Shown here: piece by piece, positions 30,892 through 41,116 of the stretch
How positions within the stretch are numbered: the stretch's first letter is position 1
How the letters are laid out: each line of letters opens with the position of its first letter
NCBI GenBank assembly: GCA_963793305.1
Contig: CAWBZV010000003.1
Span: 1,312,001-1,376,000, forward strand
DNA from: an uncultured Gemmatimonadales bacterium
GTDB lineage: Bacteria; Gemmatimonadota; Gemmatimonadetes; Gemmatimonadales; Gemmatimonadaceae
DNA: 64,000 bases
Reading direction: 5' to 3'
Translations under genes and position numbers: made by a program
Notes under the pieces: model-generated
Database searches by the model: none
What the model was told of the DNA's origin: nothing
The model's input: the letters and a program-made list of their open reading frames with translations, nothing else

Positions 30892-33337
30892 TCGAACGCC
30901 TCGTACCCACGCAATGGCTCGAGCGCGCGATCGGTGTGCAGGGTCAGGTCGTACGGCTTACCCTGCGTAAACGCGGCGCGTAGCAACTCGACCGCCCCGG
31001 GCCGCTCGCCGAGTTGCGCCGCTATTCGCGCGCGTTGATACGTGTTGCGTCCGAATAAGTACGGGGGCTGCATCGCGGCGAGTTGCGCCGAGTATCGCTC
31101 CGCCGCTGCCCGGTCACCCTTTCGTGCCGCGGCCACACCCAGCCCGCCAAGCGCATCTATATCCCCGATCGACACCCAGATTGATTCGGCCGCCGCGGGC
31201 TGACCAGAAGCGTCGTATGCTTCGGCTAATCCACTCTTATCAGATGATTGCGTCTGGAACCAGCGCACGGCCCGCGCGTAGAGCGCTTGATCAGGGTGCC
31301 CATGCGCCCGGAGCTCGTCGGCCGCAATGAGCATGAGACGTCCGGTGTTCATGGTGTCGCTCGGGACCCAGGGCAATGTCTCATCGAGACGCGACGAGAA
31401 CGTCCGCTGACCGCCCCATAGCCGCGAGGGCGCGGACTTCCGCGGCCATCGTCCGCCAGCCGTTCGGAAACCGGTCGCGTCCTTCCTTCGCGATCGCCAG
31501 CTCGGCGCGGTGATCGCCGATCATGTGATCGGCGGCCGCCGGCAACATCCAGTACCCGTCCCACCCTTTCATCCACCCGCGATTCGCGTCGACGCCTTTG
31601 AGCGCCGCGAGCGCGTGGTGCGGATGGTCGAGCATGAGCTCGAAATACCCGACGTTCGAGCAACCCCTCGCTGCCCGGCGCCGCGTCGACCATCTCGTGC
31701 GACGTGCGGACGGCGGCGGCCCAGTCGCCATGGATCTGCGCGATCGAGTTGTCGAGAAAGAATCGATCGAACGGCGCGAGCTCGGCCCGGCGTGCGGCGA
31801 GTCGCGTAATCAGCGAGTCGGCGCTCGCGTACTGGTGCGTCGTGAGGTACGCGTCGACCGTCCAGAGCACCGGTTGTGCGTAGGTCGAGTCGAGCGCGGC
31901 CGAGCGCAGGTAATGCGCGATCGCCTCGCGTTTTTGGCCACGGGTCTGGAAATCGAGCCCTTGCTCGAACTCCTGGTAGGCCTCGTACGTTGGCGGCGAC
32001 GTCGCGCGCTGGATCTCCTCGCTGAGGCGCGGATTGTACAACAGGGCCAGCGCCCCCGTGACGTGCTCGCGCAGCCGATCGACCGCGACGAGTGGCGCGC
32101 GAACGGGCCCGCTCACGGGATCGACGCTCCGCAACAACCGCCCCACGCGCGCGTCCGAGATCTGCGCCTGAAATCGGAGCGAGTCGCCGTCGCGGTAGAA
32201 GCTGCCCCAGACGATCGTCCCGGCGCCGGTCTGTTCCGCCAGCGCTCGGACCGCCGCGGGCCCGGCTCCGACAGGCGTTCTCGCGGCGAGCATGGCGGTT
32301 CGCGCATCGACGACGTCGACGAGTCCGGTCTCCGCCAGGCGCTGCGTCACCCAATCGGCCGCCATCAGCCCGACGGGGTTGAACGCGCTGTCACCCGTGT
32401 TGTTGTCGAACCGCGCCACGAGCACGCGCGTAGGCACCAACACCGGCCCGCGCATGGCTCGCCACTCGGTGATGGCATGCACGCCTACGGCAACGATGGC
32501 CAGTCCCGCAACCAGGGCGATGATGAGGCCACGTCGCTTCGGCGGCTCGGATTTCGGCGCGGCCGCTTGCGGCACGCTCGGTCGCCGAATGGCGGCTGGC
32601 GTGCGGCGCTTGTGGGGCGCAATGGGAATCGCCTGCTCCGGCGAATCACGGAGCTTCGTCGCATACGCCGTCACCGAAGCATCAGGCGCCGCGTCGAGCT
32701 CCTGTCGCACCAACGTCTCGTACACCCGGGCGTGCTGCAGCGCACCCGCGCGATCCCCGGAGGCGGCCAGTGCGTGCATGAGCTCGAGCGCCACTTCGGC
32801 GTCGAGTGGATCGGCCGACGCGAGCCGTCGACACCAGCCGGCTTCCGCGCGCGGATCCCCGCGATCGTGTGCGTCGGCCGCCAGCGTCCGCAGCGCTTTG
32901 CGATATCGCTCGGCGAGATGCGACCGCTGCCCCTCGACCCAGCGCTCGAACTCCGGCGCGTCCGGCACGTAGAACCCGTCGAGAAACGGCCCCCGATAGA
33001 TCGCGACCGCGCGCTCGTGCTCCTTCCGCTCGAGCGCCTGCTCGAACTCCGCCAAGTCGCTGGTGATCGCCTCGGGATTGAGGCGAAGCTCCGTCGTTCC
33101 GAGCACGAGATCGTCGCGCCCGAGATCGCGCCGCAGCGAGTACACGGTCTGCGCCAGCACGCGCCGGGCTTTCTCGTCATCACTGTCCGGCCATAGCTGG
33201 TTTATCAACTTCGCGCGCGCGACGCCGCGGTCGCCGGCGGCAGCGAGGATGGCGAGCACGGCCAACGGACGCCGCTGCCCGGCGGCGCCGCCGTCGCGGT
33301 CGATGGATAGACCACCGAACGTCCGGACCCGGAGCAT
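30867..33337 (-). CDS. SARP/BTAD transcriptional activator with C-terminal TPR region, two apparent frameshifts (31651-31657, 31398-31404)
   Basis: LRVRTFGGL, LWPDSD, YRGPFLDGF, ADPLD..ALELM; deleting one base at each motif fuses three ORFs into one of about 822 aa. Confidence 0.85.
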
Positions 33338-33339
33338 GG

Positions 33340-34308
33340 TCAGGGAACGAGGAGAATCTTGCCGGCCGTACGACGCGACTCGAGCGCGCGTTGCGCGTCC
33401 GCGGCGTCTTTCAGCGGGTACTCGTGCGCAATCCGCACCTTGAGCTCGCCGGCTTTGATCCACGTGAACAGATCGTTCACCCGTCCCACCATCTCGTCGC
33501 GCGTCGCGGTGTAACTGCCGAGCGTCGGGCGCGTGAGATAGAGCGAGCCCTTGCGATTCAAGATCTGGGGATCGATCGGTGGAACCGCGCCGCTCGACGC
33601 GCCGAACAGCACCATGTATCCGCGCGGCCGGAGACAGTCGAGGCTCGCGTCAAACGTTGCCTTCCCGACCGAGTCATACACGACATCGACACCCTGGCCA
33701 CCGGTGTACCGCGCGACCTCGGCCACCACGTTCTGCGTCGAGTACTCGATAGTCTCGTCCGCGCCGTCGGCACGGGCGATCTCGGCCTTGGCCGCCGTGC
33801 CCACGCTCCCGATCACCCGCGCGCCCCGCCGCTTGGCGATCTGGACGAGCAATCCCCCGGTGCCGCCCGCAGCCGCGTGGATGAGACACGTCATTCCGGG
33901 CGCCAACGGATACGTCAATGTCGCGAGATAATGCGCGGTCATCCCTTGCAGCATGACCGCCGCGGCTACGTCGGTAGCGACGCCATCGGGAATCTTTACG
34001 AGCTTTGCCGCAGGGACGGCTTGCAGCTCCGCATACGCTCCAAGCGGTCCCTCGTACGCGACCCGGTCACCAACGGCCAACCCGGCCACGCCGTCGCCGA
34101 GGGCGACGATCGTTCCGGCGCCTTCCGTGCCTGGGATAAAAGGCATGGGCACTGCATACATCCCAGTCCGCCGGTATACGTCAATGAAATTGACGCCTAT
34201 GCCCGCGAGGCGAACCAGCGCTTCGCCGGGGCGAAGTTGAGGGTCGGTTACGGTTTCGTAGCGGAGGACCTCTGGTCCTCCGTTTTCGTGTACACGGATG
34301 GCCTTCAT
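33340..34308 (-). CDS. qor: NADPH:quinone oxidoreductase (MDR family)
   Basis: GGPEVL, GVNFIDVYRRTG, LQGMTAHYL, HAAAGGTG, YDSVGK, LTRPTL. Confidence 0.93.
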   Translation of the reverse strand: MKAIRVHENGGPEVLRYETVTDPQLRPGEALVRLAGIGVNFIDVYRRTGMYAVPMPFIPGTEGAGTIVALGDGVAGLAVGDRVAYEGPLGAYAELQAVPAAKLVKIPDGVATDVAAAVMLQGMTAHYLATLTYPLAPGMTCLIHAAAGGTGGLLVQIAKRRGARVIGSVGTAAKAEIARADGADETIEYSTQNVVAEVARYTGGQGVDVVYDSVGKATFDASLDCLRPRGYMVLFGASSGAVPPIDPQILNRKGSLYLTRPTLGSYTATRDEMVGRVNDLFTWIKAGELKVRIAHEYPLKDAADAQRALESRRTAGKILLVP

Positions 34309-34311
34309 GGG

Positions 34312-34341
34312 TTGACAAGTTATAACGTCGCCGCGTAGTCT
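34312..34341 (+). promoter_or_regulatory. sigma70-like promoter for the Cys leader / sulfurtransferase
   Basis: TTGACA (34312-17), 18-nt spacer, TAGTCT (34336-41), then 5 nt to ATG 34347. Confidence 0.7.
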
Positions 34342-34346
34342 CCGAC

Positions 34347-34412
34347 ATGCGTCGCGAAACCGTCACGTTCTGTTGTGCTACCGCCAATCTGCGGCCAAGG
34401 CGACATACGTGA
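34347..34412 (+). CDS. putative cysteine-sensing leader peptide MRRETVTFCCATANLRPRRHT
   Basis: 21-codon sORF with tandem TGT-TGT, overlapping alternative hairpins, upstream of a terminator and the sulfurtransferase. Confidence 0.7.
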   Translation: MRRETVTFCCATANLRPRRHT

Positions 34413-34444
34413 CGGACTGACAGCATAATTGTCGCGTTTTCCCC

Positions 34445-34477
34445 GGCCGCTCCGATTACCGAGCGGCCCTTTTTTTT
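34445..34477 (+). terminator. intrinsic terminator (attenuator) in the sulfurtransferase leader
   Basis: GGCCGCTC-cgattacc-GAGCGGCC followed by C and 8 T, 12 nt before the ATG. Confidence 0.85.
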
Positions 34478-34489
34478 CCCCGAGGAACT

Positions 34490-35386
34490 ATGTCGACCGC
34501 TACCACCACTGTGGATCCGGAGATCGAGAAGAAGGGGTACGCCCAGCCCGAGGTGTTGGTCAGCACGAATTGGCTGGCCGAGCATCTCCATGACCCGAAT
34601 ATCCGCATCCTGGAGAGCGATGAGGACGTCCTGCTCTACGACACCGGCCACATTCCCGGCGCGCAAAAGGTCGATTGGCACACCGACCTGAACGATCCGG
34701 TCATCCGCGACTACATCACGCCGGCCGCGTTCCAAGCGCTCCTGCGCCGCCTCGGCATCGATGAGTCGACGCCGGTCATCTACTACGGCGACAAGAACAA
34801 CTGGTGGGCGACGTATGCCTTCTGGGTGTTCAAGCTCTTTGGCTTCGAGAACGTGCGCGTTCTCGATGGCGGGCGCGCGAAGTGGGAGGCGGAGAAGCGG
34901 GAGTTCGTCACCGATCGGCCGAAGTTCGAGCCCTCGACCTACACCGCGCCGCAGCGCGACGACAAGCACATCCGGGCCTTTCTCGAGGATGTGAAGAAGC
35001 ATCTCAACGCCAAGGGCAAGCTCGTCGACGTGCGTTCGCCGCAGGAATACACCGGCGAAAAGCTCCACATGCCCGACTACCCGCAGGAGGGCGCCCTCCG
35101 CGGTGGGCACATCCCGACGGCCAGGAGCGTTCCTTGGGCTCGCGCCGCGAATCCCGACGGCACGTTCAAGTCCGCCGAGGACCTCCGCGCCATCTACGAG
35201 AAGGAGCAGGGGCTTAACAAAGGCGACGAAGTCATCGCCTACTGCCGCATCGGCGAGCGGTCGTCACACACGTGGTTTGTGCTGACGTACCTCCTCGGAT
35301 ATCCCAAAGTCCGGAATTACGACGGCAGCTGGACCGAGTGGGGGAACGCCGTGCGCGTGCCGATCGAGCAGGGGTCGGGCAAATGA
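34490..35386 (+). CDS. tandem-rhodanese thiosulfate sulfurtransferase (CysA/SseA type)
   Basis: [54 protein letters not shown]. Confidence 0.95.
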
Positions 35387-38010: not shown

Positions 38011-41000
38011 ATGTTCATTTCCGACTTCGCGATCGAGCGTCCGATCCTGACGACGGTGACGATGATCGCCCTCGTCGTGTTCGGCATATTCGCTCTGATC
38101 AAAACGGATATCGACGAATACCCGGACGTCGCCTCGCCGGTGATCTCGGTCTTCGTCCCCTATCCGGGCGCGACCCCGCGCCAGGTCGAGCGCGAAGTGA
38201 TCGACCGGTTGGAGGAGCAGTTCAGCGCGATCAGCGGTCTCGATCACCTCGAGTCGACGGGGGTCGACGGGTTCGCCGAGGTCACGGTCATCTTCCAATT
38301 CGGCAAGAGCGTCGATCAAGCCGCACAGGATGTGCGCGACGCCATCGCCGAGGTGCGCGACCAGCTCCCATCGGAGGTCCGCGAGCCGATCATCCGAAAG
38401 TACGATCCCTCGGCGCTCCCGATCGTATCGCTCGCCGTGACGTCCGAGAGCATGAGTCCGGCCGAGCTCACCATACTCGCCGATCCCGGCATCACGAAGG
38501 AGTTGCGCGGGATTCTGGGCGTGGCTCAGGTCACCGTCGAGGGCGGCGACGAGCGGACGATCGCCGTCAATCTGCGGCCGCGCGACCTCGAGGCCGCCAA
38601 TGTCAGCGTCGGCGAGGTCGTGTACGCGCTCAATACCCAGAATTTGGCCGCACCGGTCGGCAGTGTCACCGGCGCGCTGACCGAGCGGACGATCCGGCTC
38701 AATGGTCGCCTGCAGTCGCCGGACGACTTCACACAGCTCGTCGTTGCCCAGCGTGGTCCTCCGCCTCGCCTGGTTCGCCTCGGCCAGATCGCCGACGTCA
38801 AGGACACCGTTGTCGAAGCCCGCTCGCTCGCGCTCTACAACGGGCGCCCAGGTATCGGGATCGATATCACGAAAGCGAAAGGGACCTCGACGACCCGCGT
38901 GGCCGACGCGATCAAGACGAAGCTCCCGGACATCCGCCGGACGCTCCCACCCGGCGTGGAGTTGACGCTGGTGCAGGATGCCGGGGTGCGCGTCTCGCAA
39001 TCCGTCACAAACGTCGAGGAGATGCTCGTCGAGGGAGCCGTACTCACAGTCCTCGTGGTCTTCGTTTTCCTGAACTCTTGGCGCTCGACGGTGATCACAG
39101 GCCTTGCACTCCCGGTTTCTACACTGGCCGCATTCATAGCCGTCTGGGCGTTCGGCTTCACGCTCAACACGATGTCGTTGTTGGGCCTCTCGCTCGCGAT
39201 CGGGATCCTGATCGACGACGCGATCGTGGTGCGGGAGAACATTGTTCGCCATATAGAAATGGGCGAGGACCATATCGAGGCCTCGCACACGGCGACTGAC
39301 GAGATTGGGCTGGCGGTGACGGCGACTACGCTCTCGATCGTCGCCGTCTTTGTGCCGGTGGCGTTTATGCGGGGCGAGGCGGGCCAATGGTTCAAGCCGT
39401 TTGCGCTGACCGTTGTCTGCGCCGTGCTGGTTTCGCTCTTCGTGTCATTCTCACTCGACCCAATGCTCTCGGCCTATTGGCCGGACCCCCAACTCGAGTC
39501 ACACCAACGCCGAAATCCGATTGGCAGGGCGCTAGAGCGATTCAACACCTGGTTCGACCGTCAAGCTGACGCATACAAGGGCGTGATTGCCTGGGCACTC
39601 GACCATCGCTGGACCATGGTGGCACTGGCCGTGCTTTCCTTTGTCGGTGCGATCTCTCTCCAAGTGATGTTCGGCGGCGCCGACCTGATCCCAAAGAGCG
39701 ACCGCTCCGAGCTCAACATTGTCGTACAAACTCCTCCAGGTTCAAACCTCGACTATATGCGGTTAAAGCTCGCCGAGATCGAGCGGGTCCTGCGTTCGCA
39801 CCCGGAGGTGCAATCCACGTATTCCACGGTCGGGAGCGCCGCGGGCGAGATCGATTCGGGATCGGTCTACGTGCGTCTCGTCCCGAAGGGACAGCGCCGC
39901 ATGTCCCAGACGGCGCTCACCGAAGTGATACGCCCCGAACTTTCGCGGCTGGGCGGCGTCACCGCCTACGTCTTCGAGCCGAGCCCGGCGGGGAATCGCA
40001 AGCAGATCCAGATCAAGCTGCGTGACGAGGGCGCGGGATACGCGACGCTCAGTCGGTTCGCCGACCAGGTGATGGGTGCGGTGCGCCAGGTCAACGGCGC
40101 CGCGGACGTTCGGGCTCTCGACGAAGGGGGACCGGCCCGAGTTGCAGATCGATCTCAATCGCCCGCTCGCGGCGACCATGGGCATCTCGGTGAGCGACGT
40201 CGCGGCCTCGTTGCGGCCCGCGTTTGCGGGCCTGCACGTCGGTGACTGGGTCGACCCCACTGGCAAGACGCGCGACGTGACGGTCAGATTCGCGGCCGAT
40301 GCCCGCGCGAACGCGACGGACCTGCAGCAGCTCCCCTTGCTGCTCTCGTCCGACAGAGGCCCGACCACGATCCCACTGGGCGCGGTCGCGTCGGTCACGA
40401 CTTCACTTGGCCCCGCCGCGGTCGAGCACTTCGGCCGCGATGAGGTGATCAGCGTCGAGGCCAACGTCGAAGGTCGATCCCTGAGCGAAGTCTCGAACGA
40501 CATCAATGCCCGGGTGGCTCGGCTGGCCACGCCGCCGGGCATTCGCATCACGCAGGGCGGAGAGGTGAGCGATCAGGCCGAGGTCTATGGCGACATCATT
40601 GCCGCCCTCGGCCTCGCGGTGCTGCTCATGTACTTGATCCTCGTCGTGCAGTTCGGATCATTCCTCGATCCGCTGACGATCATGATGGCGCTGCCGCTCT
40701 CGCTCATTGGCGTGGTGCTCGCGCTCATGATCACGGGCGAAACGCTGAATATTCTCAGCATGATCGGCGTCATTCTCCTCATGGGCATCGTCACCAAGAA
40801 CTCGATCTTGCTGGTCGACTTCGCGATCTGGGCCAAACAACGCAAACAGATCTCGACGCGCGATGCGTTGATCGAAGCCGGCCGCATTCGTTTACGCCCG
40901 ATCCTCATGACCACCCTGGCGCTCATCGCCGGCATGCTGCCGGTGGCGATTGGCGCCGGCGTCGGCGGCGATTTCCGTCGGTCGTTGGGGATCGCGGTGA

Positions 41001-41116
41001 TTGGCGGGGTCATCACCTCGACGGTGCTGACGCTGCTCGTGGTCCCGACGTTCTACGAGATCCTGGATGGCGCACGGGCGTCTTTCCTGCGCGCCATCAA
41101 GAGTTCCGGCGACTAG
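38011..41116 (+). CDS. RND efflux permease, one apparent frameshift at 40105-40111
   Basis: ISDFAIERP, GILIDDAIVVRENI, KNSILLVDF, RLRPILMT; one-base deletion gives ADVGLSTKG. Confidence 0.92.

Follow-up and report, generated by a model that had tools for sequence, protein, structure and literature searches.

A putative leaderless cysteine attenuator with an intrinsic terminator upstream of an SseA-type sulfurtransferase gene in Gemmatimonadales

Genes and signals at the locus

In the window, meaning the whole 64-kb stretch of DNA that was analyzed, a gene for a two-domain sulfurtransferase is preceded by a short Cys-containing ORF and by a hairpin with a T-run, and a divergent gene lies on the other side of the promoter. 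The features, in order of position, are as follows:

33340..34308, minus strand: divergent NADPH:quinone reductase-like gene (NF008024, 313 bits, under the 348 cut-off), a neighbour outside the switch
34312..34317, plus strand: -35 hexamer TTGACA of a putative sigma-70 promoter, read from the letters
34336..34341, plus strand: -10 hexamer TAGTCT (TAnnnT), read from the letters, which predicts a leaderless mRNA
34347..34412, plus strand: leader ORF of 21 codons, MRRETVTFCCATANLRPRRHT, with stop TGA at 34410-12, read directly and without a Shine-Dalgarno sequence
34360..34368, plus strand: segment 1, CCGTCACGT, 5' strand of the anti-antiterminator, complementary to 34407-15
34371..34376, plus strand: control codons TGT TGT (codons 9-10), 5 codons before the antiterminator segment
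34391..34396, plus strand: segment 2a, GCGGCC, a copy of the terminator 3' arm, whose partner in the antiterminator is the terminator 5' arm
34407..34415, plus strand: segment 2b, ACGTGACGG, which spans the stop codon and has segment 1 or 34429-37 as its partner
34429..34437, plus strand: segment 3a, TTGTCGCGT, inner antiterminator helix of 9 pairs (3 of them G-U), prediction only
34445..34477, plus strand: intrinsic terminator, GGCCGCTC at 34445-52, an 8-nt loop, GAGCGGCC at 34461-68, C, and T8 at 34470-77, called by the scan
34482..34487, plus strand: Shine-Dalgarno-like GAGGAA of the sulfurtransferase gene, outside the terminator hairpin and 5 nt after the T-run
34490..35386, plus strand: two-domain rhodanese sulfurtransferase, 298 aa, SseA-like (Pfam PF00581, two stretches)

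The two promoter hexamers are separated by 18 nt, and the -10 hexamer ends 5 nt before the leader ATG at 34347. The first-pass annotation of this DNA gave the same TTGACA-18nt-TAGTCT arrangement 5 nt before an ATG, as well as the same short ORF with its TGA stop, and direct reading confirms both. The promoter (34312-34341) was missed by a consensus scan, the score of TAGTCT being below the threshold. An internal promoter-like sequence, GCGACA-18-CATAAT at 34400-29, was rejected: one such site was found versus 0.5 expected, it precedes the terminator, and a related locus (L004) does not retain its -10 element. Among 46 Gemmatimonadales leaders, 28 carry a TTGAC-like hexamer 35-39 nt upstream of the leader start. 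The first start codon is further downstream in several leaders of genera g25, g32, and g37, and in several from g25, the start is 30-60 nt past the -10 hexamer. Across the window's own genome, TAnnnT motifs peak 5-8 nt ahead of candidate start ATGs, reaching 38 per 1000 at 6 nt, compared with 2 per 1000 before internal ATGs; this peak therefore suggests that leaderless genes are common in this genome and its lineage.

The ATG of the divergent quinone reductase gene is 4 nt from the -35 hexamer TTGACA, and both promoters must therefore overlap (34306-34341); possibly the divergent gene is leaderless too. L002-L004 share this arrangement, as does L005, where the divergent gene is a different one. 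Elsewhere in the window, a transcriptional-activator/TPR gene (31349-33463) and an RND transporter gene (38011-41116) are each apparently split over two frames, by frameshifts or assembly errors. The RNA data consisted of assembled contigs, with 5-20% of the sequence words present in 17 runs. In the four runs examined, contigs of two studies begin at 34365 and 34362 and cross the terminator into the gene, and none covers 34014-34355. Coming from relatives ~96-97% alike, at a depth of ~3 and without a DNA control, these contigs are uninformative on start site, strand, and level, and were excluded as evidence.

The sulfurtransferase carries the active-site loop CRIGERS, with Cys252, in its second rhodanese domain, aligning with 1UAR and 8K55. 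Its best solved relatives are Thermus 1UAR, 8K55, 3P3A, and SseA 3HZU (E 1e-124 to 3e-112), followed by 3HWI/3AAX (E ~2e-90), which we take to be CysA2/CysA3. Relatives in the structure database place the gene nearer to SseA and the Thermus rhodanese than to mycobacterial CysA2. Judged by sequence, it is an SseA-type two-domain rhodanese, and going by family and co-regulation, its probable task is to mobilise sulfane sulfur, whether for cysteine or for other sulfur needs. According to the accessible part of one report, SseA is activated by a neighbouring SufE (PMC12375888). By eye, the next ORF looks SufE-like in three Chloroflexota loci (L044, L049, and L059) and SufU/IscU-like in genus g23.

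Distribution of the leader and its cysteine codons

Genomes of the order Gemmatimonadales were searched, 41 and then 301, and 500 nt ahead of the gene were taken for each of 151 orthologues, which represent 148 genomes and 52 genera: 99 are from the window's own family (f1), 46 from family f2, and 6 from family f3; these 151 are among the best matches listed, with ~10 further listed ones (mostly from genus g35) and 40 unlisted ones left out. Among these listed matches, a Cys leader with a related terminator precedes the orthologue in 44 of the 151 regions and in 12 of the 52 genera, a count that comes from an automatic scan plus hand curation and includes three leaders with a single Cys. The leaders are divided between f1 (22) and f2 (22), with none in the six f3 regions, and by genus they are present in 6/6 regions of the window's own genus, 5/5 of g47, 4/4 of g38, 6/6 of g23, and 14/15 of g25. 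The leader is absent in the remaining 107 regions, where many of the genes directly follow another gene; one leader-negative region is from an unpublished genome (G012). Promoter spacing, leader, antiterminator segment, and terminator are kept across the 12 genera and two families, bearing out the conservation of a Cys leader that the first-pass annotation had proposed to look for. The stop codon is 13-57 nt, mostly 22-44 nt, from the terminator, and in the own family, the antiterminator segment is usually in frame, 4-7 codons past the last Cys.

Cys accounts for 145 of the 1093 leader codons (13.3%). The two alternative frames have 84 of 2098 (4.0%), and long genes of the own genome have 0.72%. 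Given that the leader frames of the curated set were chosen partly by Cys content, Cys-blind tests were added. Of the 75 orthologue regions that contain any hairpin followed by a T-run, 44 also contain two or more Cys in a frame whose stop lies 12-60 nt before the hairpin, compared with 146 of the 1248 control hairpins of the own genome, and when ORFs are defined by promoter spacing only, a Cys pair occurs in 11 of 14, compared with 104 of 1564 genome-wide; related genomes are not independent, and these counts are not p-values. Both Cys codons of the window leader are TGT, as had been pointed out. TGT is indeed the minority Cys codon of the own genome, at 23.6%, but a pair would arise by chance in ~6% of cases and is weak evidence by itself. 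Across the homologous leaders, TGT accounts for 82 of the 145 Cys codons.

Apart from Cys and, in f1, residues encoded by the antiterminator (RPG, RSG, WPG), the leader peptide is not conserved, and the number of Cys residues (1-12) and their spacing (CC, CCC, CAC, CxxC) vary among homologues, as do the flanking residues. Single-Cys leaders are found in L115 (G169), L203, and L207; the one in L115, which combines a CMM tract with an early stop, has possibly decayed or shifted to methionine. The leader of L174 (G250), with 60 codons, contains 12 Cys codons and has the same terminator.

Cysteine residues in a leader peptide may also be seen as the sensor itself, if they bind metal or react with sulfide or persulfide in the nascent chain and thereby cause or relieve arrest, with the same terminator switch as the output. 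The copper-responsive CxxC upstream ORF of Bordetella exemplifies Cys-peptide sensing, CxC or CxxC spacing occurs in many homologues, and the regulated enzyme handles sulfane sulfur. However, such a sensor is hard to reconcile with the free variation in Cys number and spacing and with unconserved flanking residues; what stays constant is how far the antiterminator lies from the last Cys codon, which is what stalling at the A-site predicts. In addition, a second leader precedes a sulfite/nitrite reductase gene (see below), and no metal gene was seen by eye downstream in 26 loci. Sensing by the nascent peptide is considered very unlikely.

A related question is whether the leader family senses Met and Cys jointly, with the window leader as a Cys-only form. 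Internal Met makes up 4.8% of leader codons, compared with 1.7% in genes and 0.5% in the other frames, tracts such as MCC, CMC, and MMGCC are common, and the leaders behind SAM-II riboswitches in genus g37 are rich in both residues, whereas some internal ATGs may be true ORF starts. The window leader has no internal Met, and joint sensing therefore cannot apply to this copy; it would be an addition for relatives rather than an alternative here. As a property of the family it is doubtful, and in some relatives joint Met/Cys sensing is likely.

Leaders with terminators of their own also precede homologues in Longimicrobium, three Chloroflexota, and one Cellvibrionaceae (5 of 80 named loci), as well as in two more Gemmatimonadales. 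In L044, L049, and L059 (Chloroflexota), L087 (Cellvibrionaceae), and L052 (Longimicrobium), Cys leaders with unrelated terminators accompany homologous sulfurtransferases. Two Agromyces candidates (L091/L093) proved to lie on the reverse of another reading, without a terminator, and were not counted. In a quick protein tree of 93 rows, the leader must have been gained or lost 12 times, with six or more of these events on well-supported branches, and the tree does not distinguish a single origin followed by losses from repeated origins. The named homologues that share a branch with the window's protein are Gemmatimonadaceae, and the host probably belongs to that family.

Competing RNA structures

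The free leader is predicted to fold into the 1:2 and 3:4 helices at -54.1 kcal/mol (z -3.75), a value matched by none of 200 shuffles. Both helices had been described in the first-pass annotation and are upheld: the strands of the 1:2 pairing (34360-68/34407-15) are complementary on reading and are predicted to form a strong hairpin with a probability of ~1.0 in free RNA, and the terminator with its T8 (34445-77) was read directly and called by a terminator scan. The antiterminator proposed there stands in part, in that GCGGCC 34391-96 pairs with GGCCGC 34445-50 at a probability of ~1.0, whereas the proposed inner helix, GCGACA 34400-05 with TGTCGC 34430-35, reaches only ~0.08 in the antiterminated fold and was rejected; the pairing predicted instead is ACGTGACGG with TTGTCGCGT. 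Segment 2b thereby changes partner between segment 1 and 34429-37.

To represent translation, the ribosome was modelled as a mask of ~29 bases on a transcript ended before completion of the terminator 3' arm. In this partial transcript, the probability of GCGGCC/GGCCGC pairing is ~1.0 with the A-site at codons 3-12, 0.2-0.6 at codons 12-13, where it varies with the mask edge, and 0 once the A-site has reached codon 14, through to the stop, as well as in RNA without a ribosome; the pairing of segment 1 with 34407-15 is 0 with the ribosome at codons 4-13. The antiterminator thus forms with the mask on the Cys codons, in agreement with the earlier proposal that a stall there antiterminates and with the blocked-segment folding suggested as a check on it. 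The accompanying claim that a ribosome reaching the stop allows termination is widened, as the antiterminator is lost already from codon 13-14 and not just at the stop. In silico, then, an antiterminator helix that excludes the terminator is reachable with the ribosome on the control codons. In the full-length leader at equilibrium, the terminator has a probability of 0.98-0.99 for every ribosome position, i.e., there is no switch; since the terminator wins at equilibrium, antitermination must be kinetic, by trapping.

A first, less strict criterion, which counted every pairing of the terminator 5' arm with upstream sequence, had no discriminating power (5 of 43 leaders passed) and was replaced by an energy-difference test, with 12 shuffles each. 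This test covered 44 leaders: the 44 curated ones, with L054 and L071 added and L002 and L003, which are near-copies, removed. Placing the ribosome on Cys lowers the energy gained by terminator formation relative to a ribosome at the stop in 39 of these and relative to free RNA in 40, the Cys-below-stop pattern being absent in 5. The mean gap is 6.8 kcal/mol in f1 and 7.0 in f2, compared with 1.0 in shuffles, and 20 of the 44 leaders are below all of their own shuffles. With the ribosome on Cys, the terminator is still favoured in 43/44. For the window leader, the gain is 13.0 kcal/mol in free RNA, 6.5 on Cys, and 10.8 at the stop, and the stalled-state value of 6.5 is reached by 1 of its 12 shuffles.

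An alignment of 19 f1 leaders has 92% of the terminator cells and 87% of the antiterminator cells paired, compared with 26-58% in slid registers (26-57% for the antiterminator), and in other f1 genera, the stalled fold has antiterminator helices of ~9-12 pairs. Covariation of the stems, which had also been suggested as a check, is not significant in these 19 leaders, the values seen being equalled or exceeded in 41 to 112 of 500 shuffles; there are one or two double changes per helix, and the stems are mostly invariant or differ by G-U changes.

It might be argued that the element works without translation, as an RNA switch, or is simply a short RNA made constitutively, with TGT kept for pairing and the ORF accidental. 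Indeed, the Cys codons (34371-76) pair with GCGACA 34400-05 in the free fold, TGT is over-represented among leader Cys codons, and covariation gives no support. Nevertheless, the Cys triplets are enriched in one frame, which starts at the leaderless distance and stops at a fixed distance, both TGT and TGC are used, and insertions between homologous leaders preserve the frame. Moreover, the Rfam covariance models, including those for riboswitches and T-boxes, gave no match at gathering score in the 64-kb window, and an untranslated element is very unlikely.

Another possibility is translational attenuation of the mycobacterial kind, in which the leader would control access to the Shine-Dalgarno sequence of the sulfurtransferase and the hairpin would be incidental. 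GAGGAA (34482-87) is 5 nt past the T-run and in a small hairpin of the minimum-energy structure, and is unpaired in the centroid structure. In the predicted fold, however, no leader segment pairs with it, the Cys codons being paired with 34400-05 inside the ORF, and the hairpin and T-run are conserved even though their distance to the gene ranges from ~20 to >150 nt among homologues. Control at this step is very unlikely.

Proposed mechanism

Taken together, the locus is read as a leaderless transcription attenuator of the trp/his type that senses charged tRNA-Cys, to which we assign a probability of roughly 0.85. Transcription would begin at or beside 34347, and the ribosome would load on the 5' AUG. 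When cysteine is plentiful, the ribosome is predicted to pass codons 9-10 and to cover GCGGCC from codon 13-14; after its release, segments 1 and 2 would pair, leaving the terminator 5' arm free, so that the hairpin can form and end transcription within the U8 run. When Cys-tRNA is short, the ribosome would wait on UGU UGU, masking segment 1 and leaving 34391 onward free, and GCGGCC would capture the terminator 5' arm while ACGTGACGG pairs with 34429-37, a kinetic event predicted to occur before the 3' arm is made. Polymerase would then read through into the sulfurtransferase gene. As the element is conserved in numerous relatives, it most likely turns the sulfurtransferase on when the cell is short of cysteine.

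A second leader and SAM-II riboswitches

A second Cys leader, MTLRCCCLAPRIPETQA, with an antiterminator and followed by a hairpin and T8, is found in the own genome at C2:572452-572558, directly before a gene for a NIR_SIR-family (sulfite/nitrite) reductase. It is kept in four of five genus relatives and has the same kind of switch profile: with the A-site at codons 5-10, the advantage of the terminator drops from 16.1 to 9.8 kcal/mol, and it is back from codon 11. A permissive search of the whole genome for ORFs with a Cys pair ahead of a hairpin gave mostly noise; a compact hairpin with 7-8 T was found only at the window locus and at C2:572452. Two other Cys-pair ORFs, C5:808060 (MSCCSASSP, with the promoter-like TTGACG-17-TACTCT 4 nt upstream) and C3:1317098, have neither an adjoining terminator nor a sulfur gene and were rejected. 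No Cys leader was found at the cysK/M-like genes and cysS of the own genome, and the assembly, which is 92% complete, yielded no PAPS reductase.

In genus g37, a SAM-II riboswitch with its own terminator is located upstream of a Cys/Met-rich leader at 8 of 30 orthologue loci (L128:1095-1165, L143/L275, L264, L266, L271, L274, L277, and L282), and RF00521 scores above its cut-off in all seven of these eight that were scanned. One g37 negative is from an unpublished genome (G325). The leader terminator of the tandem loci is the same GGCCGCTC...GCGGCC, the shared terminator and antiterminator sequence linking the two forms, and the tandem is likely a two-input gate. In genus g3, a SAM-II-like element with a hairpin and T-run stands alone before the orthologue, without a Cys leader, at three loci (L112:1336-1407, L116:2480-2551, and L193:341-418), scoring 29.5-33.5 bits, below the Rfam cut-off. 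The presence of different sulfur sensors on the same gene fits a role in sulfur amino acid supply, and SAM-II control of the orthologue in other genera ties it to sulfur amino acid status.

Further riboswitches were observed. The own genome contains two SAM-II riboswitches above the cut-off, with terminator-like hairpins, at C5:59821-59896 and C5:12724-12798, and the ORFs that follow them appear by eye to encode a threonine-synthase-like protein and a methionine synthase fragment. A c-di-GMP-I riboswitch is situated upstream of an orthologous sulfurtransferase region in family f3 (L027:1194-1310), and a fluoride riboswitch ~1.4 kb upstream of the orthologue in L113, L118, and L120 of genus g3.

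Relation to known attenuators

In the classical design, a short ORF with control codons and alternative 1:2, 2:3, and 3:4 helices precede a GC-rich hairpin and U-run ahead of the first gene. Similarly, a control-codon ORF, the three helices, and a terminator between ORF and gene are present here, but the control codon is Cys, there are two control codons, the ORF is apparently leaderless, the host belongs to Gemmatimonadota, and the target is a sulfurtransferase. Classical attenuators of the trpL, hisL, pheL, leuL, thrL, and ilvL type are summarised in the accessible portions of two sources (bioRxiv 10.1101/834739, PMC1262725).

The closest parallel is the mycobacterial "Cys ribulon", in which leaderless poly-Cys sORFs control cysA2 and other operons, as described in the available part of Canestrari et al. 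(bioRxiv 10.1101/834739). In the mycobacterial leaders, a pair of neighbouring Cys codons is enough (bioRxiv 10.1101/834739), and the window leader, with two consecutive Cys codons, falls within this definition. Both systems combine an sORF, leaderless in mycobacteria and putatively so here, and consecutive Cys codons with a rhodanese-type sulfurtransferase, and involve several sulfur loci per genome. The first-pass annotation had drawn this parallel; the output differs, however, since Ms5788A, located before Ms5788-cysA2-Ms5790, acts on translation and not on termination, and the mechanism at other mycobacterial Cys-sORF loci is left undetermined in the portion of the preprint available (bioRxiv 10.1101/834739). 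Unlike the Ms5788A type, the gene here is nearer to SseA than to CysA2, and its Cys tract is not paired with the Shine-Dalgarno sequence. Cysteine control in mycobacteria is likewise termed translation attenuation in the accessible text of PMC13236596. In Actinobacteria, cys leader peptides have been predicted without conserved terminators, as far as the accessible text of Seliverstov et al. (2005, PMC1262725) goes; they resemble the present leaders in having Cys-codon runs in short ORFs before cysteine operons and differ in that the terminator is conserved here. The available main text of PMC2965389 mentions no cysteine leader. Thus, the published cysteine leaders that were found, as presented in the accessible parts of these sources, act on translation or have no terminator. 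In a literature search that left out most subscription papers, neither an intrinsic-terminator cysteine attenuator nor a report of attenuation in Gemmatimonadota was found.

Implications

Tentatively, Gemmatimonadota may possess a terminator-based cysteine regulon of leaderless Cys-codon attenuators, in which rhodanese and sulfite reductase would provide a route from thiosulfate through sulfite and sulfane sulfur to sulfide and on to cysteine, with the module placed behind SAM-II in a sister genus as a two-input gate; no published counterpart of such a regulon was found. If the attenuator reading is true, this would be a classical intrinsic-terminator attenuator for cysteine, a textbook mechanism with an amino acid apparently new to this form, and ribosome-mediated attenuation would reach leaderless mRNAs and a phylum that has been little studied and is for the most part uncultured. 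At 130 nt, the element is small enough for a reporter. It would also offer a regulatory clue to SseA-type rhodaneses, which would be made when cysteine is short and come under SAM control in relatives, a pattern that would support a job in sulfur supply and not in detoxification only.
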